Shown one piece after another: positions 1 to 10,031 of a stretch of DNA of 10,031 bases. A program made the position numbers and the translations under genes. The stretch comes from a virus. Its lineage: Duplodnaviria > Heunggongvirae > Uroviricota > Caudoviricetes. Every line of letters starts with the position of its first letter. Within the stretch, counting starts at the first letter, position 1. The stretch covers positions 1-10,031 of IMG/VR virus record IMGVR_UViG_2645727991_000007; one strand, written 5' to 3'. Below the pieces are notes generated by a model. The model made no database searches. It was not told the DNA's origin and saw only the letters and a program-made list of their open reading frames with translations.

Positions 1-934
1 AATAAACGCCCTCACTCTCCCTGTTTTTATACCCGCCGTACACGGTGTCGTACTGGGTAGCGTATGTATTTTTCCAGTAATACGTCGTGTCACCACAAAT
101 CCACGGCACATCTGCAGCACTGCCACCATGACACTGCGCGTTAAACACAGTGAGGTCAGCACGAAACTGCTTCAGCATGGCTGTAAACAGCGCAGGTTGC
201 TGTGCGTAGGTGGCGGCGCTCATGTCAAACTCTCCCTGCATCCAGCACACCGCCAGCAACACATTTTTCGGGTTCTTCTGTAATGCAGCTTTAGTGCGCG
301 CAATCAGGTCCTGATATAACGGTTTACCCACACCCCAGCGTGCCGAATCCTGGCTGGCCCCCGCGTCCGCACTGAATGTCCCCTCCGCGCCCTGGGTGAA
401 TGCCGAACCACCACGACAGCATGGTACCAGCAGGATCCCCGCGTTATTCGGGATATACGGAAGCAGTTTTTTGGCAATATGTAAGCCCTGGCCGACACAG
501 CCGTACTGCCCTTTGCTCAGGTCTGCCTTCGGATGATTCAGCGTACTCATATCCTGCACATCATGCAGGCAGTGGTCGGCCGGAATAATATCGTTATATC
601 TGCAGGCAGCCCCACCCGGCGTCACTGTACTGCGGCGCGCCAGCTGTTTAATGCGCGGATCCGGAGCATCGTATGAATCCGGCAGCGGAAGCCCTTCACC
701 GTAAGCCATGGCATTGGATTGCCCGGCCAGTACGATGACGTAGTACCAATCCGGCTCAGTTGCACCACTGACCACCACATCACCTTCTGCTGTAATCGCC
801 TGCATCAGAGTATAAGGGGTTATGGCCACCGGACTACCAAACGGCTGCCAGCCCTCTTTCAGTTTGTGTGTCAGCTTTTCCGCAAGGTCTGACGGCGACG
901 CCGCCCTGACAACATCATAATGTTTAAATGTCAT
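1..934 (-). CDS. 5' portion (about 311 codons) of a prophage NanS-p-like sialate O-acetylesterase (SASA/SGNH esterase); 3' end lies beyond the window start
   Basis: Minus-strand frame is open from ATG 934..932 (SD GGAGGA, rev-comp of tcctcc at 939-944) to the window edge; absent from the ORF track because the stop is outside the window. Translation starts MTFKHYDVVRAASPSDLAEKL and contains VLAGQSNAMAYGEG, the GQSN serine block typical of sialate O-acetylesterases. Location after the phage tRNAs matches nanS-p placement in Stx-type prophages. Family call is from memory. Confidence 0.55.
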   Translation of the reverse strand, partial: MTFKHYDVVRAASPSDLAEKLTHKLKEGWQPFGSPVAITPYTLMQAITAEGDVVVSGATEPDWYYVIVLAGQSNAMAYGEGLPLPDSYDAPDPRIKQLARRSTVTPGGAACRYNDIIPADHCLHDVQDMSTLNHPKADLSKGQYGCVGQGLHIAKKLLPYIPNNAGILLVPCCRGGSAFTQGAEGTFSADAGASQDSARWGVGKPLYQDLIARTKAALQKNPKNVLLAVCWMQGEFDMSAATYAQQPALFTAMLKQFRADLTVFNAQCHGGSAADVPWICGDTTYYWKNTYATQYDTVYGGYKNRESEGVY

Positions 935-1118
935 TATTCCTCCCGGCCGGGATAGTGTATTAAATCAGATATGGAGTGGGCTGTAGTCCGGAAGCCTGAA
1001 TGACACACGGGGACTACAGCCCAAGAAATGAAAAAAGGCCACGCAGTTGCGCAGCCTGATAAACCCTGGTTAAAATCCACACGATAACAACACAACAATA
1101 TCAGTATCTCATGCTATT

Positions 1119-1143
1119 GCCCGAACCCATTCGGGCATTTTTT
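1119..1143 (+). terminator. Intrinsic-terminator-like hairpin, plus-strand orientation
   Basis: gcccgaa(1119-1125) / loop ccca / ttcgggc(1130-1136), perfect 7-bp stem, followed by a-tttttt (1138-1143). Confidence 0.35.
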
Positions 1144-1148
1144 ACCCA

Positions 1149-1176
1149 TAAAAAATGCCCCTCCGGAGAGGGGCAT
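1149..1176 (-). terminator. Rho-independent terminator ending the TerB-like/small-ORF unit
   Basis: Perfect 9-bp stem atgcccctc(1155-1163) / loop cgga / gaggggcat(1168-1176); on the minus strand it is followed by TTTTTTAT (plus A-run 1150-1155). Confidence 0.5.
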
Positions 1177-1355
1177 GTTTGCATACACATTCTTTTTCTT
1201 GCATGGTGCCGGGTGCCTCCCGGTGAATTCAGCCGGTGTCACTGAACCCGCGTCGGCTTGCCTATAACATAATAAATGCTACCTACACCAGTCGCCCCTC
1301 CGCACAGGGGGATTCACCATGCAGAAGTGTTTTTAATAAACAGCAAATAAAAAAA

Positions 1356-1523
1356 TCAAGCATTATGCAGGCTGTTTCTTTTTATCACCGGCCACAGCAA
1401 TACCACAATGCCGCAGACCAGCACCCCATCCGCCAGCACCGACATGATTCTGCTGGTGAAATCCACCATCACCACCAGAAACAGCAGGAGTGCAGCCACA
1501 GCCAGGCGCAGTTTTACCGTCAC
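1356..1523 (-). CDS. Small hydrophobic protein (55 aa, two predicted TM segments), GTG start overlapping the TerB-like stop
   Basis: Below the ORF-track length cutoff. Minus-strand GTG 1523..1521 overlaps the upstream TGA (GTGA); possible SD GGAG 9 nt upstream. Translation VTVKLRLAVAALLLFLVVMVDFTSRIMSVLADGVLVCGIVVLLWPVIKRNSLHNA, stop TGA 1358..1356. No homolog recalled. Confidence 0.3.
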   Translation of the reverse strand: MTVKLRLAVAALLLFLVVMVDFTSRIMSVLADGVLVCGIVVLLWPVIKRNSLHNA

Positions 1524-1949
1524 AGGTAATTCTCCAGACGAAGACCCAGAACACCGGCAATCTCTTCCAGCACCTTGCGCTCTTCCGGCTCAATTTCGCC
1601 GTCTGCCTCCGCAATGGCCACCGCCACATCCAGCACATCTTCCGCTTCACGCGTATCGTGTTTCACATCCTCAATCTCGCGTAACGCGGCACGACGACCA
1701 ATTTTAAAATTGGTATCCAGCTGACCGATAATGGTTGCGCTAATCGCATTAATTTCCGAGGTAAACGCAGACAACGCAGGCTGATTACGTAAGACCTGTT
1801 CGATCTTCGCTTTCTCGGATGCCTCGCATTCACCATCTGCATAGGCCACCAGGTATGCAGCGTTAATCACCGCCTGTGCCAGATCGCGTTTCTCAAACTT
1901 TTTAATTTCCGCTGCCGCTCTGCGGGTTTTCTTTTTGAAGATTCCAAAC
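1520..1949 (-). CDS. TerB-like (tellurite-resistance TerB domain family) protein, 142 aa
   Basis: ORF-track frame 1520..2023, trimmed to ATG 1949..1947 which has SD AAGGAA 7 nt upstream (the track start at 2023 is GTG with no SD). Translation MFGIFKKKTRRAAAEIKKFEKRDLAQAVINAAYLVAYADGECEASEKAKIEQVLRN... EADGEIEPEERKVLEEIAGVLGL, with the paired ADGE helix repeats typical of TerB. Family call from memory. Confidence 0.6.
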
Positions 1950-2083
1950 ATCGTGACGTTCCTTTGGGTGGGTGAGCCAACGCCCGGGAGCGATCTGCCC
2001 ACAGAGAAAGTCACACTGACCACTCCGTAAGCTCACCCCCGAAAGGCTCTGTGGTTGATATGCGCCGGGCGTGGCGCAGATAC

Positions 2084-2107
2084 AAAAAAGGCCCGCCGAA
2101 GCGAGCC
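2084..2107 (-). terminator. Rho-independent terminator downstream of the tRNA pair
   Basis: On the minus strand GGCUCGC-UUCG-GCGGGCC (7-bp stem with one G-U, UUCG tetraloop; plus 2090-2107) followed by UUUUUU (plus A-run 2084-2089). Confidence 0.5.
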
Positions 2108-2120
2108 TGGAAAATAAGTG

Positions 2121-2197
2121 TGGCGCGTTGTAGTGGAGTCTAACCACTGACCGATTGCTTAGAAGGCAATTGCTCTGTCCGACTGAGCTAACAACGC
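2121..2197 (-). tRNA. tRNA-Arg (anticodon UCU), 77 nt with encoded CCA; prophage argN/argO-type
   Basis: Rev-comp folds by hand as a cloverleaf: acceptor GCGTTGT/ACAACGC, D-arm GCTC-AGTCGGACA-GAGC, anticodon arm ATTGC-CTTCTAA-GCAAT (TCT anticodon), variable CGGTC, T-arm AGTGG-TTAGACT-CCACT, discriminator G, CCA. The T-loop has A where the conserved C56 is expected. Confidence 0.65.
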
Positions 2198-2278
2198 ATG
2201 ATGCTGATAATGGACCGCCACCGGGGACTCCGAATCTCGCACAGGGTGACGTTCTTTCCTGATGAGCTAGTGGCGGTT

Positions 2279-2354
2279 GGTGGCCCTTGCTGGATTTGAA
2301 CCAGCGACCTGGCGATTATGAGTCACTCGCTCTCACCACTGAGCTAAAGGGCCG
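2279..2354 (-). tRNA. tRNA-Ile2 (anticodon CAU; ileX/ileZ-like, likely scored as tRNA-Met by generic tools), 76 nt with encoded CCA
   Basis: Rev-comp GGCCCTTTAGCTCAGTGGTGAGAGCGAGTGACTCATAATCGCCAGGTCGCTGGTTCAAATCCAGCAAGGGCCACCA; cloverleaf with anticodon loop CTCATAA. Differs at only a few positions from E. coli ileX as I recall it; Stx-type prophages carry ileZ-argN-argO at this position. Confidence 0.75.
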
Positions 2355-2362
2355 ATAACATA

Positions 2363-2391
2363 ATGATAACGTTACAGAATAAATTCAGCAA
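2363..2391 (-). promoter_or_regulatory. Sigma70-like promoter positioned to start the tRNA transcript
   Basis: On the minus strand TTGCTG (plus 2391-2386), 17-bp spacer, TATCAT (plus 2368-2363); the -10 ends 8 nt before the tRNA 5' end at 2354. Lies in the last codons of the methylase ORF. Confidence 0.4.
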
Positions 2392-2393
2392 TA

Positions 2394-3092
2394 TCACTCT
2401 CTCTTTCTGATTAAATTCTGTACATCCCTTGCGGTCTGCTCAAAACGTCCGGTCTCCAGCTCAACGCCAATTGCACGACGCCCCAGTGCATTCGCTGCTT
2501 TGACTGTCGAACCGGACCCCATGAAGAAATCTGCAACCAGGTCTCCCGGACGACTGCTGGCGGTAATCATTTGCCGCAACATATCTGCCGGTTTTTCACA
2601 GGGATGTTTGCCCGGATAATACTGCACAGGCTTGTGCGTCCAGACATCCGTATAAGGAACGGCTGCCGATACGGAAAAATAACGCCGCAGTGATTTGTAC
2701 TCTTCCAGCAGGCTGGCATACTGCCGGTTCAGCTCACTGTATGTGCTGACCAGTTGGTGATGTGGCTTTTCCAGTTCACCCCGCTGATGTTTCTCTTCTG
2801 CCACCCGGGCAAACAGCACCTGAAGTTTTCTGTAATCATCCTCGTTCGGTAACTGCCACTGGCTGGCACTGAACCAGTGCGACACCATGTTTTTCTTTCC
2901 TGTGGCATCCACAATCTGTTTTGCCGTTATCCCCAGAGCAGCACGCGCATCACGAAAGTAAGAAATCAGCGGGGCCATCACATGCTGTTTCAGTGCACTG
3001 CCCTTCGCCGCATAACCACAAATAAAAAAGCCTTTACTGCGGAAGGCGTCTGTAACAACCGAACTGATAGTCTGCCAGACCCGCCATAACAA
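2394..3092 (-). CDS. DNA methyltransferase (N6/N4 amino-MTase family), C-terminal and target-recognition portion only; probably 5'-truncated or inactive
   Basis: ORF-track frame. C-terminal block HPCEKPADMLRQMITASSRPGDLVADFFMGSGSTVKAANALGRRAIGVELE matches the HP(T/C)xKP ... D(P)FxGSG(T/S)T ... GxE signature of this family. No DPPY/NPPY/SPPF motif IV anywhere in the ORF or in other frames upstream to 3354. The track start at 3092 is TTG; first in-frame ATG is 2978. Confidence 0.6.
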   Translation of the reverse strand: MLWRVWQTISSVVTDAFRSKGFFICGYAAKGSALKQHVMAPLISYFRDARAALGITAKQIVDATGKKNMVSHWFSASQWQLPNEDDYRKLQVLFARVAEEKHQRGELEKPHHQLVSTYSELNRQYASLLEEYKSLRRYFSVSAAVPYTDVWTHKPVQYYPGKHPCEKPADMLRQMITASSRPGDLVADFFMGSGSTVKAANALGRRAIGVELETGRFEQTARDVQNLIRKRE

Positions 3093-3231
3093 GCTGGGTC
3101 AGTATTAACTGGCAGCGTTCGCGTGAAAGATAAGTGTTCTGCGCAATTTCCTCGACGGTCGCCGGTTCGGTGACGCTTAATTCATTAAACACCACTCTGG
3201 CGGTTTCGGTCATATCCTGCTGTTTTAGCAT
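3034..3231 (-). CDS. Small helix-turn-helix protein (about 65 aa), PapI/FaeA-like winged-helix candidate
   Basis: ATG 3231..3229 within track frame 3034..3354. Translation MLKQQDMTETARVVFNELSVTEPATVEEIAQNTYLSRERCQLILTQLVMAGLADYQFGCYRRLPQ, with the TVEEIAQ...LSRERCQLILTQLV segment HTH-like. Start uncertain: ATG 3213 and the GTG at 3354 are alternatives; the SD is weak. Confidence 0.35.
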   Translation of the reverse strand: MLKQQDMTETARVVFNELSVTEPATVEEIAQNTYLSRERCQLILTQLVMAGLADYQFGCYRRLPQ

Positions 3232-3354
3232 GCCTTTTTCCCTTTTCCGGTTAACGTGACACACCAATAACTCTTGTCGAAAAAGCCAGCAAGCTGAAAG
3301 AACGGTATTAATAACCACCAGCGAATTTATTGCGCTGCTGTATATTACGGACAC

Positions 3355-3375
3355 AAAAAAACCACCTTCCGGTGG
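3355..3375 (-). terminator. tR'-like intrinsic terminator ending the short late leader
   Basis: Minus strand CCACC-GGAA-GGUGG (plus 3362-3375, 5-bp GC-rich stem, GNRA loop) followed by UUUUUUU (plus 3355-3360). Confidence 0.5.
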
Positions 3376-3472
3376 CTTCCTTGTGCGAAAAAACTTGCAT
3401 TTCGCCTCGCGATACAGCTTTGCGGAGCTTACAGGAATTCAAGCTGTTTCTGCGTAAAAAAGCAAGCTTTTT
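3376..3472 (-). promoter_or_regulatory. Putative Q-dependent late promoter (PR'-like) and leader immediately downstream of Q
   Basis: Minus strand after the Q stop: AAAAAGCTTGCTTTTTTACGCAGAAACAGCTTGAATTCCTGTAAGC... Candidate -35 TTGCTT, 17-bp spacer, -10-like TTGAAT; an AT palindrome AAAAAAGC-TT-GCTTTTTT; a leader hairpin GCGAAA-N9-TTTCGC; then the terminator. Element positions are tentative. Confidence 0.35.
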
Positions 3473-4015
3473 TTATCGAAATGAATCGTGCATAGGTACA
3501 TAAAGCATGTGTTCAGCCACGGCTAACCAACCTGCAATACGTTTCTCACATGTGCTGAAACACCATTCCGGGTGAGTACGATTTAAACATTCTGCCATTT
3601 TTCTCTTACTCATTCCCCGTCCTTCGTACCTTTGCCGGAGAATATTGATTAGCCCGGGATATTCCCCAAGCACCTCACTGATAACGCGATCAATAATCAA
3701 CGCCTCTGTGTCTGTACAATGTGACAACCAGCTCTTCTGCTTCCCTCTGGTCATATCCCGAAAAAATGCCTCAAGTTCCGGTTTTTCCAGCCCGGATTTC
3801 TTCATGCTGCGTAAAACCTCATTAACTGCTGTTTTCGTCAGCCTTTTCGAAACCAGTAACCGGTTAAACATATTTCCGGATTTACCCCCACCGATATACG
3901 ACCACCGCCCCCACATCCGTAATTTCCCCTGGATCCAGACTGCTTCCAGCGTGTTCAGGCGTAAATGTTCGCCGCTTTTGCCTGTAATTTCCGGATATAT
4001 CATATTTACGCTCAC
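3473..4015 (-). CDS. Antitermination protein Q (Q21/Q82-type, Phage_antitermQ-like)
   Basis: ORF-track frame; GTG start 4015 overlaps the rusA stop (GTGA), alternative ATG at 4003. Contains LRMWGRWSY (compare the ERWGAWA motif of Q82-type proteins, from memory) and C-terminal cysteines EWCFSTC. Sits between rusA and the late promoter/terminator, the canonical Q position. Confidence 0.55.
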   Translation of the reverse strand: MSVNMIYPEITGKSGEHLRLNTLEAVWIQGKLRMWGRWSYIGGGKSGNMFNRLLVSKRLTKTAVNEVLRSMKKSGLEKPELEAFFRDMTRGKQKSWLSHCTDTEALIIDRVISEVLGEYPGLINILRQRYEGRGMSKRKMAECLNRTHPEWCFSTCEKRIAGWLAVAEHMLYVPMHDSFR

Positions 4016-4371
4016 TCACTCTCAATTTTGTAAATCTTCACACCCAGCCGTCCACCAGATACTGGCTGACCACGTACAATATTGATTTCATCAAACTGCT
4101 CGTCATCAATGAGCACTCCCGCATGCGTCAGCGCATCCAGCGGTGCTTTCAGAATATTGTCCAGGTCACGACGACGCTTATCCGGTGGCTCTGCAATAAT
4201 TTTTATTGCCAGCCGTCCGGACAGGCTTAATTTCAGTCGCTGCTGGCGAACAATAAGCGCCACTGCCCGGCGATAACGCTCCCCGGCTTTTGATACAAAA
4301 TATGTGCTGCCACGGCGTCGCCAGTAAGTGTTCACCGTCGGCGGGTAAGGTAAAACCAAATCTATGAGCAT
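4012..4371 (-). CDS. rusA: Crossover junction endodeoxyribonuclease RusA (Holliday junction resolvase)
   Basis: 119-aa ORF, ATG 4371 with SD AGAGGTGA. Translation MLIDLVLPYPPTVNTYWRRRGSTYFVS...PDKRRRDLDNILKAPLDALTHAGVLIDDEQF closely parallels E. coli RusA (PDRRRRDLDN...DALTKAG), from memory. Confidence 0.85.
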   Translation of the reverse strand: MLIDLVLPYPPTVNTYWRRRGSTYFVSKAGERYRRAVALIVRQQRLKLSLSGRLAIKIIAEPPDKRRRDLDNILKAPLDALTHAGVLIDDEQFDEINIVRGQPVSGGRLGVKIYKIESE

Positions 4372-4383
4372 CAGTCACCTCTT

Positions 4384-5433
4384 TTACCCGAGCACGCCGG
4401 TTGCAAAGGCGTGATCAAGAAAACGAAAAATTAACTCAATCTGAGAGCCGTACTTTTTCTCAAACTCCAGCGGGTCTGCATGAAGTTCGTTGTGGTGCTC
4501 CCGGCACAACGGTAACGTGAAAATATCGTGGGCCTTTGTCCCCATTCCCCCCTGACCATGACCAATCAGGTGATGCGGATCGTCAGCAGGCTTACCACAA
4601 CACGCACACGGCTGTGTCTTTACCCAGCGCGTGTATTTCTCGTTAACCCAGCGGCGACGTTTAGGTCGTTTCATGAAAGATTCCGGAGACTCAGGATCAA
4701 CGGCAATGCTGACCACCGTCTTTTCCTGTGGTGGGTTCTGTTGCTGGTGGGCGTGAGGCAGCGGCGCAAGATTTTTTGTGCGCTGCTTCAGTATGCTGGT
4801 GGCGGTCTGCTCTCCCGGTACGATGTCGCTTTCACGGTACACTGAGCGGATTTTTTCCGCACGCAACCCCAGCGAACGACGTAATACCGCTTCCGGTAGC
4901 GCGTCCGCCACCTGATTGCGGACCGCCCACCAGGATAATTCAGCCAGAGATAATTCACGCTCCTGCGTACCGCATATTGCGTGACCGATGACGTCAATCA
5001 TCCATGCTGACAGGTTTTGATGAGCAAGTTGCTCGAGTGATTCGGATGTCTGGTCACGCAGCTGGTTGTCGCAGTGCCAGCACAACACCATTGCGCCGGT
5101 ACCATAACGGTGAATAACGGTTTCACTGTGATGATAATCGCCGTGTGGCCACTGGCAGGATTTAACATGGCGCAGTAACCAGTCAGACAATGCGCCAGCG
5201 CCACCAGCAGCACGAATCACCCGTGCGTTACTGAAAAACGGCAGCAATGTTTTGTCTTCCACTAGCGGCTGGCGAACGGCAGGGACGATGCCGGACGGCA
5301 GATTACGCATGCTTTTCGGTTCCGGCTCCACCAGTACCCGGGTATTGTGGAATACCGGCATGGATTCACGGCCCGGCTTAACGATCACCAGCCCGAGTTC
5401 CGGTACCAGAACAGGTCGAAGTAATACCCGCAC
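4384..5433 (-). CDS. DUF968-domain prophage protein (YdfU-like), 349 aa
   Basis: ORF-track frame; GTG start 5433 with SD GGAGG 4 nt upstream. MRVLLRPVLVPELG... N-terminus and C-terminal CACCGKPADDPHHLIGHGQGG...LPLCREHHNELH (HNH/zinc-like) match my recollection of Qin-prophage YdfU. Contains two plus-strand Chi octamers (4743-4750, 4795-4802). Confidence 0.75.
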   Translation of the reverse strand: MRVLLRPVLVPELGLVIVKPGRESMPVFHNTRVLVEPEPKSMRNLPSGIVPAVRQPLVEDKTLLPFFSNARVIRAAGGAGALSDWLLRHVKSCQWPHGDYHHSETVIHRYGTGAMVLCWHCDNQLRDQTSESLEQLAHQNLSAWMIDVIGHAICGTQERELSLAELSWWAVRNQVADALPEAVLRRSLGLRAEKIRSVYRESDIVPGEQTATSILKQRTKNLAPLPHAHQQQNPPQEKTVVSIAVDPESPESFMKRPKRRRWVNEKYTRWVKTQPCACCGKPADDPHHLIGHGQGGMGTKAHDIFTLPLCREHHNELHADPLEFEKKYGSQIELIFRFLDHAFATGVLG

Positions 5434-5434
5434 G

Positions 5435-5707
5435 TTACCTCCAGATGCGTTGCTGGAATGTGCGGGACGGACGCGGCGGGCGTTCGGAATAAAGGAGCCT
5501 GACGTAGATTATCCAGTGACGGTAGTCGAGGCTAAGGGCTTTCTTAAACTCATACCCACGTCTGCGGTAGTTATGAATCAGCCATTCGGCCTGTTCTTCA
5601 GTGCAGGGATCGTGCTGATACCAGTCATATTTGAATGTGTGAGAACACCGCCCTTGCCTGCTGGCAGGGGCGATATCAGAATTGTGATGTTTGGTATTGT
5701 GCGCCAT
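5435..5707 (-). CDS. Hypothetical protein (about 90 aa)
   Basis: Track frame 5435..5761 begins at a TTG; first ATG is 5707 (MAHNTKHHNSDIAPASRQGRCSHTFKYDWYQHDPCTEEQAEWLIHNYRRRGYEFKK...). TAA stop 5437..5435 sits 1 nt before the DUF968 GTG. No family recognised. Confidence 0.4.
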   Translation of the reverse strand: MAHNTKHHNSDIAPASRQGRCSHTFKYDWYQHDPCTEEQAEWLIHNYRRRGYEFKKALSLDYRHWIIYVRLLYSERPPRPSRTFQQRIWR

Positions 5708-5776
5708 CGGTTTTCTCTGCTGGCGCAGCAGGTGCCAGTTGTTCAAGCTGGCGTGCGGCAATATTGTCTCTGATTT

Positions 5777-5807
5777 CTGTTGTCGTCAACAGGCAACGTG
5801 CTATCAT
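5777..5807 (+). promoter_or_regulatory. Toxin-antitoxin promoter with palindromic operator
   Basis: -35 TTGTCG (5780-5785), 16-bp spacer, -10 TATCAT (5802-5807); perfect palindrome CTGTTG-tcgt-CAACAG (5777-5792) overlaps the -35; SD GTGAGG at 5831-5836. Confidence 0.45.
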
Positions 5808-5842
5808 CGAATGGTGTTCTATCCTACTCCGTGAGGTTTACC

Positions 5843-6100
5843 ATGCGTACAACCCAACAATTCAGCATTACATTAACTAACGAAATGGCTGACATGGTGC
5901 GCGCCCGTGTGGCTTCCGGTGCCTATGCTTCAGAAAGCGAGGTCATTCGTGAAGGGCTTCGCGCACTGAATGAGCGCGATAAAGCAATCGAAGCGTGGTT
6001 AACGCATTCAGCCGCCCCCTCTCTTGATTCTATCCGCGAAAACCCAAACAACGGACGCTCCATTTCACAGGTTCGCGCCGCGATTCGATCCGGGAAGTAA
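5843..6100 (+). CDS. Type II antitoxin, ParD-like (ribbon-helix-helix/CopG family)
   Basis: ATG 5843 within track frame 5780..6100. Translation MRTTQQFSITLTNEMADMVRARVASGAYASESEVIREGLRALNERDKAIEAWL... ; stop is 5 nt before the toxin start. Confidence 0.75.
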   Translation: MRTTQQFSITLTNEMADMVRARVASGAYASESEVIREGLRALNERDKAIEAWLTHSAAPSLDSIRENPNNGRSISQVRAAIRSGK

Positions 6101-6105
6101 TCTGC

Positions 6106-6405
6106 ATGACATATGAAGTCATCATTACTCCTGAGGCCGAAGAACAAATAATCAACCTGCACAGATATATAACGGAGAAAGCAGGGAACGTCATTGCTGA
6201 CAATTTTGCCAATGCGCTTCTTGATTATCTTGATGGGTTTTCTACATTCCCGCATCGGGGCAATAAACGCGATGATATTCGCCAGGGGATGCGGGTAACT
6301 CATTTCCGCCACAGAACGATTATTGCTTTTGCCGTTGATGGCAGAAAAGTCTTTATTGTCGGTATCTATCATGGTGGGCAAAGTTATGAAACCGATTTCT
6401 TATAA
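6106..6405 (+). CDS. Type II toxin, ParE/RelE superfamily
   Basis: 99-aa ORF MTYEVIITPEAEEQIINLHRYITEKAGNVIADNFANALLDYLDGFSTFPHRGNKRDDIRQGMRVTHFRHRTIIAFAVDGRKVFIVGIYHGGQSYETDFL; size, operon position after the RHH antitoxin and the C-terminal FxV...IxHG pattern fit ParE. Confidence 0.8.
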   Translation: MTYEVIITPEAEEQIINLHRYITEKAGNVIADNFANALLDYLDGFSTFPHRGNKRDDIRQGMRVTHFRHRTIIAFAVDGRKVFIVGIYHGGQSYETDFL

Positions 6406-6488
6406 ACTTTTACCCACATCATTCCGGTGTTAGAATTAACCGTCCGCCCCCCTCTCTTACTGGCGGATTCGTAGGCTATATAAATCAA

Positions 6489-6523
6489 AGATCCCGGCTC
6501 ATGTTTGTGTCGGGATCTTTTTT
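6489..6523. terminator. Bidirectional intrinsic terminator between the convergent TA operon and the minus-strand small-peptide ORF
   Basis: 8-bp stem agatcccg(6489-6496) / 14-nt loop / cgggatct(6511-6518), followed by TTTTTT (6518-6523) on plus and by CTTTGATTTATAT on minus. Confidence 0.5.
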
Positions 6524-6530
6524 CGGCGAT

Positions 6531-6614
6531 TTATCCCCAGCGGCAAATCGAATACACCACCAGCGCCACCGCCATCGCAATTCCTACCGTTGTGAATGCT
6601 TCAGGCCTGGTCAT
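6531..6614 (-). CDS. 27-aa single-TM peptide, translationally coupled to the upstream ORF
   Basis: Below the track cutoff. ATG 6614..6612 overlaps the TGA of the 114-aa ORF (ATGA). Translation [30 protein letters not shown] stop 6533..6531, terminator directly downstream. Confidence 0.25.
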
Positions 6615-6955
6615 CGTAAAACATCCTCCACGCTTGTCAGTCCGTTTCGCTCCAGGTAGTCCATCGCCTTATCCGGCAGTTTGCAGTCCGGCTTCGCTTT
6701 CCTCAGTTGCCAGGCTAACTGCTTTACCTGCATAGTTAACTCGTCGACCAGACGCTGATACCCCACTGGTTTGTATTCATGCAATTTACCGGCTGGCTCT
6801 GCTGCCAGCGATGCCAGTGCGATTTCCAGAACAGCAATATCCATCTTATATGTGCGGATGATGTCATGGTCGATTGTGCCCGGTATACACAGTCTCTGTG
6901 CTTCAATAGTCTCCTCTGCGTGAGCTATTAACTGCTCTCTGGTAATAGTGGTCAT
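6611..6955 (-). CDS. Hypothetical prophage protein (114 aa)
   Basis: ORF-track frame; ATG 6955..6953 overlaps the upstream TGA (ATGA). [31 protein letters not shown]... ; no family recognised. Confidence 0.55.
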
Positions 6956-7467
6956 GCCGCGTTTCCTTCTTTCTTATTAACAATTACACCGTCATATATT
7001 TCATTAAGGTGCCCTCTCAACTCCATGCGCCTTAATGCAGACAACATGTAATCGCATTCAACCTGCTTATTTCCAGTAAATGGCTTATCGTCAGGATTAC
7101 CCCAACAGCAATTACCCTTGGGCCACCCATGTACTTTCCGTACTCTTCCGTTAACAACGTGAAGTAATCCCCAGCCAGGTGGTAAATCCTCAATTGAAAT
7201 AATTCCCGGCTCACTAATAAAGAATCGCCAGTCGCCCATTCCAAGAGACGGATTTTTACGAAAACACTTTTTTCTATCTGCCAACAAGTCAGCACGAGAA
7301 CATTTCGCCTCTATCAGGCATGATGCTGAATTTCTGAATCCCATAGCATCTGGCTGTTCTCCGGTACTGGTTACAGCTATAAAGCGGTCATGAAAACAAA
7401 CCTTGAACCCGTTGCGCTTAAGGAACTTGTACGCAATCTGACAGAGTTCGCGGTGTGTTAACGCCAT
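6952..7467 (-). CDS. Hypothetical protein with PD-(D/E)xK-like nuclease motif (171 aa)
   Basis: Track frame 6952..7497 trimmed to ATG 7467..7465 (SD AAGGAG 7 nt upstream), 1 nt after the Ea22-like stop. [21 protein letters not shown] gives D ... E-x-K with spacing typical of the PD-(D/E)xK fold; the fold assignment is inference only. Confidence 0.55.
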
Positions 7468-7468
7468 A

Positions 7469-8416
7469 TCACTCTCCTTTGATGCGAATGCCAGCAAGCC
7501 AGTTTCTTATGCCGATATATTCAGCGTTCCTGAAACCGCTTTTTACATATATAAATGGCAAGCGAAGATTGTGACCATTGACTGCCAGGTAGTCTTTACA
7601 ACCCTGTTCGGTGAAACAGCAGGTAACGAATTCATCAATATCTTTCACAGCAACGCGCCGCCATTTTTCTGGTGGCTCTCGAAAGTTTTCATGAAGTAGC
7701 TCGAGACGACGACTATGGCGTTTATTGGCTTCATTGCCATCTTCGTCAACCCAGACAATCCGGTCATGGTCATAATCAGCATCAACAACGATTTCGCGCT
7801 TTTGATACACACAAAACATGGGATCTGACGTTATTCGATTGTCCTGTGTTCGAATATTTTCACCGATGATGCCAAACGAATCTGGTGCAGATTTTGTCTG
7901 CATCTCTTCGATACGTTCAGCCATCGCAGCACACTCTTCAAAGTTGCTTAATGCTTTTCGCTCCCATTCGGCGCATTGTTTTTCCAGTTCTGCTATGCGC
8001 TTACTTCCATCCGCGATTACTCCCTCGTAATATTCACGCTGCTCGTTGAGTTTTGATTTTGCTGCTTCAAGCTCAACGCGCAGCTTCCCTACCGTTAGCG
8101 CAATATCCTCGTTCTCCTGGTCGCGGCGTTTGATGTATTGCTGGTTTCTTTCCCGTTCATCCAGAAGCGCCAGCGCAACATTTGGATTAAAGGCAGCAAT
8201 AAATTCAGCGTTTGCGTAAGCCTGAGCATCTGTTTCAACCAGGCAGTTAACATGACATTCTGCAATCACGCCACCGGGTTCTCCTTTCCATTTTTGACAA
8301 ACAAAAACTCCTGTTATATTCCCATGCTGATTGCCCGATGTATGCCCTACGATGTAGCATCCTTTAGTTGCTTTCTCTGCTGCTTCACGCAGCGCCTGAT
8401 AGTCAATCTCGCTCAT
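7469..8416 (-). CDS. Ead/Ea22-like family protein (315 aa) with central coiled-coil
   Basis: ORF-track frame; ATG 8416..8414 overlaps the upstream TGA. N-terminus MSEIDYQALREAAEKATKG, the LLDERERNQQYIKRRDQENEDIALTVGKLRVELEAAKSKLNEQREYYEG coiled-coil and the C-terminal AGIRIKGE resemble lambda Ea22-type proteins as I recall them. Confidence 0.6.
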   Translation of the reverse strand: MSEIDYQALREAAEKATKGCYIVGHTSGNQHGNITGVFVCQKWKGEPGGVIAECHVNCLVETDAQAYANAEFIAAFNPNVALALLDERERNQQYIKRRDQENEDIALTVGKLRVELEAAKSKLNEQREYYEGVIADGSKRIAELEKQCAEWERKALSNFEECAAMAERIEEMQTKSAPDSFGIIGENIRTQDNRITSDPMFCVYQKREIVVDADYDHDRIVWVDEDGNEANKRHSRRLELLHENFREPPEKWRRVAVKDIDEFVTCCFTEQGCKDYLAVNGHNLRLPFIYVKSGFRNAEYIGIRNWLAGIRIKGE

Positions 8417-8589
8417 TCATCGCCCCACTCATCACAATATGCTTCGACCGCAGTTTTCCCTGCTTCATAATCATCACGCCATGCTTCAGCATCAGCAGCA
8501 CTGCCACCACGTAACTCTGCATAGTCCATTAACAGTTCATGCCATTCTTCAAAACTGACGCTGTATTTAGTTGAACCAAAATCAGCCAT
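8413..8589 (-). CDS. Small highly acidic protein (58 aa)
   Basis: Below the track cutoff. ATG 8589..8587 with strong SD AGGAGGA. Translation MADFGSTKYSVSFEEWHELLMDYAELRGGSAADAEAWRDDYEAGKTAVEAYCDEWGDE; 16 D/E versus 4 K/R. Confidence 0.4.
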   Translation of the reverse strand: MADFGSTKYSVSFEEWHELLMDYAELRGGSAADAEAWRDDYEAGKTAVEAYCDEWGDE

Positions 8590-8590
8590 T

Positions 8591-8764
8591 TTATTCCTCC
8601 TCTTCGTCTTTTATTTCGTGATATGAGTAATTGCAGTAGTTAAAGAAAATATCTTTTGCTTCGTCATGTATTTCATCAGGCGTCGCATCATCATCCACTT
8701 CGAATTCATCCTCGAAATCTCCACCGGCTATTCCCGTTTCAATAATTATTTTAAACTTTCGCAT
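8591..8764 (-). CDS. Small highly acidic protein (57 aa)
   Basis: Below the track cutoff. ATG 8764..8762 preceded in frame by TAA. Translation MRKFKIIIETGIAGGDFEDEFEVDDDATPDEIHDEAKDIFFNYCNYSYHEIKDEEEE; 20 D/E versus 5 K/R. TAA stop is 1 nt before the next ATG. Confidence 0.4.
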   Translation of the reverse strand: MRKFKIIIETGIAGGDFEDEFEVDDDATPDEIHDEAKDIFFNYCNYSYHEIKDEEEE

Positions 8765-8857
8765 TTAACTACCGCCCTTTCGGGCGGCCTCCTGATGTTC
8801 TTAGGGTGCAGAAATCCCTCCGGTTAAGGATTAAATTTTTAACAGAGCTAAATTTAA

Positions 8858-9214
8858 TTATTCAGTTCTGGATTTTGTCGCCCTGCGTATCCGCGCTTTC
8901 GCGTTACGCTCAATCTGAATTAGCTTTTCTATATTTTTTCGCCTTTCCCGCTCCTCCTGGCGCAAGAGCCTTACATCATCTGCCAGTCTGGTTTCTCTTT
9001 TCGCCACAGAGAGCATCCAGTCAAACGGCTCCACAACTGCACCGCAGATTTTACAGCGGACCTGACGCTCTTTTTCGTCAACCCGAACAGAGGCGTGATG
9101 ACAATATGCTCTTTCCGATGCCTCATAAAGAAAATTAACCTGATTACGTGGGTCATCCTCTTTTACCGGAAATAAAACGATATTGCTTAACTCATCTTCT
9201 GGTTTTATTTCCAT
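8858..9214 (-). CDS. Hypothetical protein (118 aa) with CHH...CxxC zinc-ribbon-like motif and basic C-terminal tail
   Basis: Track frame 8858..9271 trimmed to ATG 9214..9212 (SD AAGGAG 6 nt upstream). MEIKPEDELSNIVLFPVKEDDP...AYCHHASVRVDEKERQVRCKICGAVVEPFDW...RLLRQEERERRKNIEKLIQIERNAKARIRRATKSRTE. Confidence 0.5.
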   Translation of the reverse strand: MEIKPEDELSNIVLFPVKEDDPRNQVNFLYEASERAYCHHASVRVDEKERQVRCKICGAVVEPFDWMLSVAKRETRLADDVRLLRQEERERRKNIEKLIQIERNAKARIRRATKSRTE

Positions 9215-9271
9215 GCTCTTCTCCTTTGATGTGAATGCCAGCGGTAATTGAAGCCTGATAGCTAATTTCAT

Positions 9272-9667
9272 TCACAGTATCGCCTCCTGAAAATTACCCT
9301 GATAGAAAGCCAGTACACGCAGCATAACTTCACTCTTCCGGCACTCGCCACAGATTATGTTCTGTTGTCTGTCGTAGCGGCGTATTTCTCCGTCTGGTAA
9401 CTTTCGAATCAATGTCTGGTCGGTTGTTTTCTCCGCTGCCTTACGCCATACGCGATACACCTGTTCTGATGTAAAAACACCGTATTTACCGGGCATGTAT
9501 AAATCGCCACAAGCCAGTACATCCACAAGGCAACGTCTGACTGAATGCCAGCCTGCTCCCGTCGCTCTCTCCAGTTGTGATATCGTCATGCGTTCATTTT
9601 TGCGTACCAGCCCGATAATTCGGGCCTTCAGTTCTTCACGCTGTTCGTGTGTAAAAGGTTTCGCCAT
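9272..9667 (-). CDS. Hypothetical protein (131 aa), possible winged-helix DNA-binding protein
   Basis: Track frame 9272..9682 trimmed to ATG 9667..9665 (SD GGAGG). MAKPFTHEQREELKARIIGLVRKNERMTISQLERATGAGWHSVRRCLVDVLACGDLYMPGKYGVF... ; the TISQLERATGAGWHSVRRCL segment is HTH-like (inference). Confidence 0.5.
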   Translation of the reverse strand: MAKPFTHEQREELKARIIGLVRKNERMTISQLERATGAGWHSVRRCLVDVLACGDLYMPGKYGVFTSEQVYRVWRKAAEKTTDQTLIRKLPDGEIRRYDRQQNIICGECRKSEVMLRVLAFYQGNFQEAIL

Positions 9668-9682
9668 AAGCGCCTCCGGCAA

Positions 9683-10031
9683 TCACTTTTCCGATACAAC
9701 ACGGCGGGAAGAATCAGTAATCTGTCGAACAATATCCCGGTGCTTGTTCAGCTCCCGCAGCGCGGCGCAGACTCGCTCCCACTTCTGAACATCACTTTTC
9801 GCCCTGCGCAGCGCCAGGTTTGCCCTGCGAAGGGACGGAAAAATCAGCTCATCTGCTTGCGTTTCGGTAAACGATGGCAACGGCTGCACAATGTCCGCCA
9901 CAGTTTCTGTTTTAATTTCTTCCTGTGTTGCGGCTTCCCGGACTGGTAACGCAGCACCTGCTGGCTGAGGAAAGGCCTTACCATCATTTTCCGTTACCGG
10001 CGCGGCTTTCGGATCTGCTGGTAAATTACCC
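9683..10031 (-). CDS. 3' portion of a gene continuing upstream beyond the window end (function unknown, possibly replication-region protein)
   Basis: The track gives 9683..9901 from an internal GTG, but the same frame stays open to the window edge (...GNLPADPKAAPVTENDGKAFPQPAGAALPVREAATQEEIKTETVADIVQPLPSFTETQADELIFPSLRRANLALRRAKSDVQKWERVCAALRELNKHRDIVRQITDSSRRVVSEK). Stop at 9685..9683. Confidence 0.45.
   Translation of the reverse strand, partial: GNLPADPKAAPVTENDGKAFPQPAGAALPVREAATQEEIKTETVADIVQPLPSFTETQADELIFPSLRRANLALRRAKSDVQKWERVCAALRELNKHRDIVRQITDSSRRVVSEK

Follow-up and report, generated by a model that had tools for sequence, protein, structure and literature searches.

We analyzed a 10,031-nucleotide stretch of DNA from a virus of the class Caudoviricetes (IMG/VR record IMGVR_UViG_2645727991_000007, positions 1 to 10,031), called the window below, and focused on a two-gene cassette, tciA-tciB, and the leader RNA that precedes it, all on the minus strand. 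tciA (1951..1520, stop included; ATG at 1951-1949, TGA at 1522-1520) encodes a predicted cytoplasmic TerB-domain protein of 143 amino acids (aa), and tciB (1523..1356, GTG at 1523-1521) encodes 55 aa of the DUF3927 family that are predicted to form a two-helix membrane hairpin. The TGA stop of tciA overlaps the GTG start of tciB in the tetranucleotide GTGA, and a GGAG is found 8 nucleotides (nt) 5' of the GTG. A pseudoknotted leader RNA of 128 nt (1952..2079), which scores 145.9 bits with our model R1, lies directly before the tciA ATG. An earlier sequence-only reading of the window had described a TerB-like gene GTGA-coupled to a small open reading frame (ORF) with two transmembrane (TM) helices; the overlap and both helices are confirmed here, and the leader at 2079-1952 was absent from that reading. 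tciA and tciB are under purifying selection, are translationally coupled, and travel as a unit with the 128-nt leader.

TciA matches the Pfam TerB family (PF05099) across residues 25 to 137 (E = 2.2e-16, 60.6 bits, gathering score 24.4), so that the TerB assignment of the sequence-only reading stands and only the length it gave, 142 aa, needs correction to 143 aa. TciA also matches phrog_632, "tellurite resistance," over its full length (E = 3.8e-69), and a profile built from seven TciA proteins matches the solved Klebsiella TerB structure 2JXU (E = 1.1e-14, positions 15 to 137) and structure 2OU3 (COG3793, E = 6e-4). Paired acidic motifs of the form ADG-x5-E (CDD cd07176) presumably form the metal site of TerB. 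As read from the sequence, TciA carries both of them, AYADGECEASE (residues 36 to 46) and AEADGEIEPEE (residues 114 to 124), and D39, G40, E46, and E124 are invariant in an alignment of seven lineages, in which the second DG varies. Searches of NCBIfam with TciA returned only subthreshold matches to DjlA, YmfL, and anti-sigma-E models, which are attributable to the TerB-like fold, and returned nothing with TciB. Neither protein matched a defense model in PADLOC-DB 2.0: the best TciA alignment was with PDC-S48 (E = 0.0028 over 35 residues), and TciB gave nothing. The suggestion that the TerB gene belongs to a defense context thus found no support in this database.

The small ORF matches DUF3927 (PF13064) over its full length (E = 4.3e-17, 62.3 bits, cutoff 25) and phrog_1470, "TciB-like" (E = 4e-30); PHROGs files both this family and phrog_632 under "moron." Among 80 close prophage loci, 78 allowed tciB to be followed as far as its stop codon, and 76 of these 78 kept the overlapping GTG start and a frame of 43 to 63 codons, which answers the question of conservation that the sequence-only reading had raised. 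The ratio of nonsynonymous to synonymous polymorphism (pN/pS) for tciB was 0.32 to 0.44 in frame versus 1.1 to 1.5 for the same DNA in the other two frames, and it was 0.045 for tciA. Eight TciB residues (R6, D21, F22, T23, S28, D32, G33, and P45) are each at least 91% conserved among 68 distinct sequences. That the ORF is short, hydrophobic, GTG initiated, and without an NCBIfam model might suggest a chance frame in the 3' untranslated region of the TerB gene, an explanation with almost no probability left, given the family matches, the frame kept in close relatives, the same start-stop coupling in distant lineages, the in-frame purifying selection, and the eight conserved positions; we therefore rule it out. 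TciB is built of a pair of hydrophobic helices on either side of a D-F-T-S turn, its ends are basic, and its gene directly follows the TerB gene. Hydropathy and charge analysis of the 68 sequences gives a net charge of +1.8 and +1.6 at the termini and a neutral turn, which by the positive-inside rule places both termini in the cytoplasm (N-in/C-in). These features indicate that TciB is a putative N-in/C-in membrane hairpin of two helices with conserved intramembrane Asp residues.

The cassette is an already-catalogued gene pair, and earlier work has also placed it in the stx slot. The sequence-only reading had presented it as new cargo, a view that does not survive the existing Pfam and PHROG families, the PGAP names, and the near-identical copies, which number in the thousands. 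The pair is annotated tciA/tciB in the records of phages JLK-2012 and PPyecE, and PGAP names the products "tellurite resistance TerB family protein" and "DUF3927 family protein." An 811-bp segment with the pair is present in 1,157 of 5,426 complete Escherichia coli genomes, about a fifth, at a median of 4 and a maximum of 10 places per genome, and the best match is 99.8% identical. The gene names derive from the tciABC genes of phage P1, where they were assigned by homology only. "Tellurite resistance," "colicin resistance," and "inhibition of cell division" are likewise homology labels that have spread through databases. Mentions of TerB in O157 transcriptome papers concern the ter island or replication Ter sites.

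The leader folds into five helices. A 5' hairpin, H0 (2077-2062), is joined through its loop (2071-2067) to a downstream GGGCG (1985-1981) in helix PL. P1 pairs 2054-2047 with 2006-1999 and is followed by a CCUUUC tract (2046-2041); P2 pairs 2038-2031 with 1977-1970, P3 pairs 2026-2018 with 1995-1987, and the Shine-Dalgarno (SD) sequence lies at 1965-1959. P2 and P3 form a nested hairpin whose apical loop contains the 3' strand of P1, which together with PL makes two pseudoknots among the five helices. The window leader has a fold z-score of -3.9, and a model search with filters off found no further copy in the window. Across cassettes the leader is about 74 to 84% identical, including cassettes whose TerB proteins share as little as 43%, and part of the segment is recognizable in Erwinia and Salmonella jumbo phages.

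To assess covariation in the leader, 25 sequences were aligned with guidance from the model, which did not include PL and P1. Paired cells made up 92.8% of the total versus 37 to 48% with slid partners, and compensatory changes occurred in 26 of 35 pairs versus 8.5 ± 1.8 in shuffled alignments (0 of 500 shuffles reached the observed value) and 3 to 10 in slid controls. PL was 96.8% paired, with compensatory changes in three of its five pairs, and P1 was 94.7% paired, with compensatory changes in four of eight. In jumbo phages and in "Candidatus Pantoea communis," the H0 stem is rebuilt from unrelated sequence with the loop kept, and the sole loop change, to UGCCC, has its counterpart in a downstream GGGCA.

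The position and sequence of the leader point to an action on translation of the gene that follows. It runs into an SD sequence and AUG without a terminator, and its start lies 6 to 18 nt past a terminator-like hairpin and U-tract in 46 of 53 and 52 of 68 distinct contexts. An invariant CCUUU beside P1 is complementary to the SD AAAGG. When partition-function folding is restricted to nested pairs, 13 of 25 family members pair the SD with this tract at a probability above 0.75, and the SD has a mean unpaired probability of 0.22 versus 0.49 with shuffled upstream sequence. On the basis of this modeling, the leader probably masks the ribosome-binding site and would act as a translational gate that the cargo gene brings with it; RNA processing or self-cleavage may also be among its activities. 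SD-masking cis-regulatory leaders are familiar from riboswitch expression platforms, RNA thermometers, and pseudoknotted autoregulatory leaders such as that of phage T4 gene 32. The window leader resembles them in being a compact conserved fold that immediately precedes the SD and AUG and includes a conserved pyrimidine tract able to pair with the SD, and differs from them in matching no Rfam family and in preceding, across its family, genes that are functionally unrelated.

The leader is present in all 81 close E. coli cassette copies, and a pattern derived from it identified 80 loci, at each of which a TerB gene is next (80/80), followed by TciB wherever the sequence is complete. The model also finds divergent full-length leaders before other genes, with the five helices kept via different sequences; members of the family lie at L106 23-158, L116 1781-1925, L120 3700-3815, L146 157-272, and L233 to L311 of our collected loci. 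A scan for the H0 hairpin of the divergent leaders matched at least 120 viral contigs, and after two chance pattern matches were discounted, the genes that followed fell into about eight unrelated protein groups. These include a P22-type Ant, a KilA-N protein, HNH_3 endonucleases, a GT2 glycosyltransferase, and several proteins without a known function. This range of genes excludes a TerB-specific element, such as a metal riboswitch comparable to the Mn riboswitch before TerC genes, and makes it unlikely that the leader senses a metabolite tied to the product of the gene that it precedes.

The leader also could not be matched to a described RNA. A search of Rfam 15 with the leader body gave no family at E ≤ 10, only generic terminator matches and noise, and none of six loci with divergent leaders reached a gathering score. 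A limited literature search found no published description. Pas small RNAs (sRNAs) were considered and rejected, since these end in terminators and adjoin esterase and holin genes; STnc100 and AgvB were rejected as well, both being separate elements of this locus (1082-1348). In PPompW prophages (e.g., LC567818.1, 15685-15727), the match to the leader covers the first 43 nt and is followed by ISEc20, an IS110-family insertion sequence, and the structured leader may therefore be an insertion target. Somewhat tentatively, we propose that the leader represents an undescribed, widespread class of pseudoknotted cis-acting RNA that gates the translation, or processes or insulates the mRNA, of unrelated phage accessory genes. 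Such a class might, as possibilities that we put forward with the same reserve, act as a switch for an infection-state signal or as a self-cleaving or insulating element, and it would then be a generic "expression adaptor" borne by mobile cargo genes of phages.

Homologs of TciA were found in 132 phage records, both in temperate phages (lambdoid phages, P1, P7, and D6) and in strictly lytic ones (N4-like Salmonella and E. coli phages, Erwinia and Salmonella jumbo phages, and Vibrio and Pseudomonas phages). The start of a DUF3927-type ORF falls within -11 to +4 nt of the TerB stop in all of the enterobacterial lineages examined; the coupled lineages are Escherichia, Klebsiella, Franconibacter, Pantoea, Pseudescherichia, Buttiauxella, P1, the N4-like phage SP-076, and the Erwinia jumbo phage ChrisDB. 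Coupling extends to Pseudomonas phage phiK7B1, Pantoea phage LIET2, and Salmonella phage Arash, with TerB identity falling to about 31 to 37%. Other phages have a different partner in the same place. In Vibrio phage BUCT194 (L103 1-1395), TerB is followed by a TerC-family gene (Pfam E = 3e-41); in Vibrio phage D505 (L006 1501-3081), it is paired with a gene of the Na/Ca-exchanger family (Na_Ca_ex, E = 4e-28); and in Pseudomonas phage AF (L005 1929-2150), an unannotated 73-aa ORF with a single TM helix is GTGA coupled to the TerB gene and is homologous to gp47 of Pseudomonas phage Zuri (L099 1498-2143). This gene order suggests that phage TerB is mostly paired with a membrane or cation-transport protein. 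The idea that TciB is a "mini-TerC" hairpin was rejected at the sequence level because the TciB profile gave negative scores against phage TerC and CaCA proteins.

Several further observations concern these records. BUCT194 carries two TerB genes. Product names in the Zuri record look shifted, with the TerB gene labeled "dCTP deaminase" and the small ORF labeled "tellurite resistance protein." Phage 434 (L008 2112-3344) has TciB at the same position between Q and the esterase gene without a TerB gene before it; there, TciB follows a 247-aa membrane protein without a Pfam match, and another small membrane protein comes next.

The closest named relative of the cassette is the P1 tciABC operon. 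Its TerB-type TciA is 42 to 43% identical to TciA of the window and is followed by a DUF3927 TciB that is 50% identical, the two systems share a start/stop overlap, and the P1 operon is likewise accessory and nonessential and adjoins phage tRNA genes. They differ in that P1 has a third gene, tciC, which encodes a 35-aa single-TM protein, overlaps the tciB stop, and has no counterpart in the window; in that the P1 copy lies in the C1-repressed early ban operon instead of a Q-dependent late slot; and in that it lacks the pseudoknotted leader. The resemblance to terZABCDEF of IncHI2 plasmids and the O157 TAI island is more limited. There, too, a TerB-fold protein is encoded beside an inner-membrane protein, its presumed partner, but the window lacks TerC, TerD/E/Z, and TerA/F, and TciB, a two-helix protein, is not similar to TerC in sequence.

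In the window, the cassette occupies a prophage slot with a defined frame. The order on the minus strand is Q, a 106-aa protein without assigned function, a DNA methylase, tRNA(cat), tRNA-Arg(tct), a terminator, the cassette, hairpins, and the esterase gene. The Q-type late antiterminator gene (DUF1133/Phage_antitermQ, 3473..4015, minus strand, Pfam E = 3.9e-110) is the presumed source of read-through. The first phage tRNA (2278..2353, minus strand), which carries a CAT anticodon and was recognized by Rfam, is typed as Met by ARAGORN, and its homolog in phage VT2-Sakai is annotated tRNA-Ile (ileZ-type tRNA-Ile2). tRNA-Arg(tct) (2121..2197, minus strand) was found by ARAGORN and by Rfam (tRNA, 66.7 bits). 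An intrinsic-terminator-like hairpin with a U-tract (2089..2108, minus strand) follows tRNA-Arg, and its VT2-Sakai homolog is annotated as a terminator. Downstream of the cassette are two more terminator-like hairpins (1176..1155 and 1057..1036, minus strand); in the scanned region, eight such hairpins were found versus 3.1 expected. The nanS-p-type esterase gene (2..934, minus strand; Pfam DUF1737 and SASA) is represented by its 5' part, runs off the window, and is 91 to 97% identical to the yjhS/SASA esterase genes of phages JLK-2012, 434, and YYZ-2008.

Two sRNA genes separate the cassette from the esterase gene. An STnc100-family sRNA (1144..1348, minus strand) matches Rfam RF02076 over its full length (153.6 bits, gathering score 47) and begins 8 nt after the tciB stop, and its terminator is the hairpin at 1176-1155. 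Convergent with it, the AgvB anti-GcvB sRNA (1082..1143, plus strand) matches RF02702 over its full length (96.5 bits, cutoff 56); AsxR matches the AgvB position below threshold in Rfam. Convergent sRNA pairs have been described that follow cargo coding sequences downstream of PR' and before a conserved phage ORF, as has AgvB's anti-GcvB function, with a benefit to host fitness (Tree et al. 2014, PMC4104026), and the EcOnc27/STnc100 sRNA follows stx2B in Stx2 phages. The sequence-only reading had named two terminators as bracketing the cargo; both hairpins exist (2108-2089 and 1176-1155), and they belong to the tRNA frame and to the 3' end of STnc100 rather than marking the boundaries of the cassette. 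A 26-aa ORF (1283-1363, minus strand) overlaps the tciB stop at the position that tciC occupies in P1; it bears no relation to TciC and, lying inside the STnc100 sRNA, is probably not a gene.

VT2-Sakai has the order Q, PR', tRNA-Ile, tRNA-Arg, tRNA-Arg, terminator, stx2A, stx2B, nanS-p. Homology between the window and VT2-Sakai spans 827-1340 and 2073-2504, and the breakpoints at 1340 and 2073 imply that only about 1341 to 2072 has been swapped for stx2AB. This agrees with the earlier proposal that the arrangement of tRNAs, cargo, and nanS-p is the stx position. Both loci share Q, tRNA-Ile/Arg, a terminator, the cargo, an STnc100/EcOnc27-type sRNA, a convergent AgvB/AsxR-type anti-sRNA, and nanS-p, and they differ in that the cargo of the window is tciAB with its own structured leader and no toxin. 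The leader model found no match in the VT2-Sakai stx2 locus.

The TerB-TciB pair adjoins or sits inside tRNA clusters in P1 (L003 1113-2773), JLK-2012 (L001 4964-5197), Erwinia phage ChrisDB (L004 883-3274), and the window (2121-2353). E. coli prophage cassettes follow differing tRNA sets, and 16 to 17 of 81 loci have no tRNAs. A functional requirement for tRNA linkage was rejected on these grounds; the varying or absent sets imply co-location in a permissive region, a link that is positional rather than obligatory. Farther upstream, the window (5780-6405, plus strand) encodes a ParD-type antitoxin (106 aa, E = 2e-7) and a ParE-type toxin (99 aa, E = 5e-10) on the strand opposite the surrounding phage genes, upstream of a DUF968 gene (4384-5433) and RusA in a nin-like region.

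A simple consensus scan of the minus strand from 900 to 3600 found no sigma-70-like promoter. We propose, in a reading that we hold with about even confidence, that tciAB is a Q-dependent late-slot cassette whose products would form a leader-gated, membrane-tethered TciA-TciB complex serving membrane or cation homeostasis during the lytic phase, and that it is not a tellurite determinant. The cassette, apparently without a promoter of its own, would be transcribed by Q-modified RNA polymerase that has passed the terminator behind tRNA-Arg, and its products would then appear late in lytic growth. Pairing of the leader CCUUU with the SD sequence would gate translation of tciA. TciB would hold TciA at the inner membrane, on its cytoplasmic face, and the resulting 1:1 complex would be a minimal analog of TerB-TerC. 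Until lysis, this complex might stabilize the infected cell's membrane or divalent-cation homeostasis. TciAB alone would not confer tellurite resistance. A lytic membrane role is favored by the coupling of the two genes, the recurrence of a membrane or cation-transport partner, the presence of the pair in strictly lytic phages, the upstream terminator without a promoter-like site, and the location of the P1 copy in the ban operon.

Several points weigh against this proposal. We infer the TciA-TciB complex, its stoichiometry, its metal binding, and its membrane effect alike. No experimental test of tciA or tciB function was found in the literature; a genome-wide CRISPR interference (CRISPRi) screen reported that P1 tciA, tciB, and tciC are nonessential and dispensable for lytic growth, and in one study the operon was missing from nearly half of the P1 subgroup-1 phage-plasmids examined. 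The TerB genes of Cygsa01 and Rhizobium phage TM16 have no membrane partner immediately downstream. The simple-consensus scan may miss a weak or non-sigma-70 promoter, so that expression in the lysogen is possible. As to the gate, 12 of 25 leader family members lack strong SD masking, the masking rests on thermodynamic folding restricted to nested pairs, and the invariance of CCUUU and AAAGG means that covariation cannot test their pairing.

Three other functions for the cassette were weighed. Superinfection exclusion or colicin protection, in which TciAB would block DNA entry or pore formation at the inner membrane, is unlikely, although large ter operons have been reported to inhibit phages and confer colicin resistance, the module is predicted to lie in the membrane, and its presence is variable, as for other exclusion genes. 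There was no PADLOC match (best E = 0.0028), and the ter phenotypes have been mapped to multigene clusters and are not known to map to a lone TerB. Moreover, expression from the late operon would shield only a cell that is already committed.

A lysogenic-conversion moron that gives the host tolerance to tellurite, oxidative, or envelope stress is the role closest to the sequence-only reading, which had expected a host phenotype of this kind, and it is distinctly improbable as the main role. The TerB domain itself, the improved survival that ter clusters provide under tellurite and oxidative stress, the abundance of the cassette in multiple copies in enterohemorrhagic E. coli (EHEC)-type genomes, and the host fitness benefit from AgvB in the same slot all speak for it. 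Against this, the gene strand has no promoter-like site and a terminator lies directly upstream, and the pair is also found in strictly lytic phages, for which there is no lysogen to convert. The reported core of ter systems is a complex of TerC and TerB, and resistance requires terBCDE(F), including TerC. No terC or terD/E/Z gene was found in the window or in related cassettes, and BUCT194 alone pairs TerB with TerC. O157 strains, furthermore, already have a separate ter island.

A role in lysis timing, with TciB modulating holin triggering and TciA as its cytoplasmic regulator, has little probability. The lambdoid cassette lies just upstream of nanS-p and the S-R-Rz lysis genes, and TciB is like a class II holin or antiholin in size and topology (two TM helices, N-in/C-in, and a basic C terminus), but the pair lies far from lysis genes in P1 and in N4-like and jumbo phages, where it occupies early or tRNA regions. 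TciB has no holin family match in Pfam or PHROGs, and knockdown of P1 tciABC caused no plating defect.

Together, the comparative evidence shifts the hypothesis for tciAB, which is one of the most abundant uncharacterized gene pairs in EHEC genomes, toward a membrane function in the lytic cycle and away from tellurite resistance. The leader is the one apparently new element at the locus. If confirmed as a shared translational gate or processing element, it would constitute a new RNA family and would explain how cargo genes are kept silent or insulated wherever they have landed.

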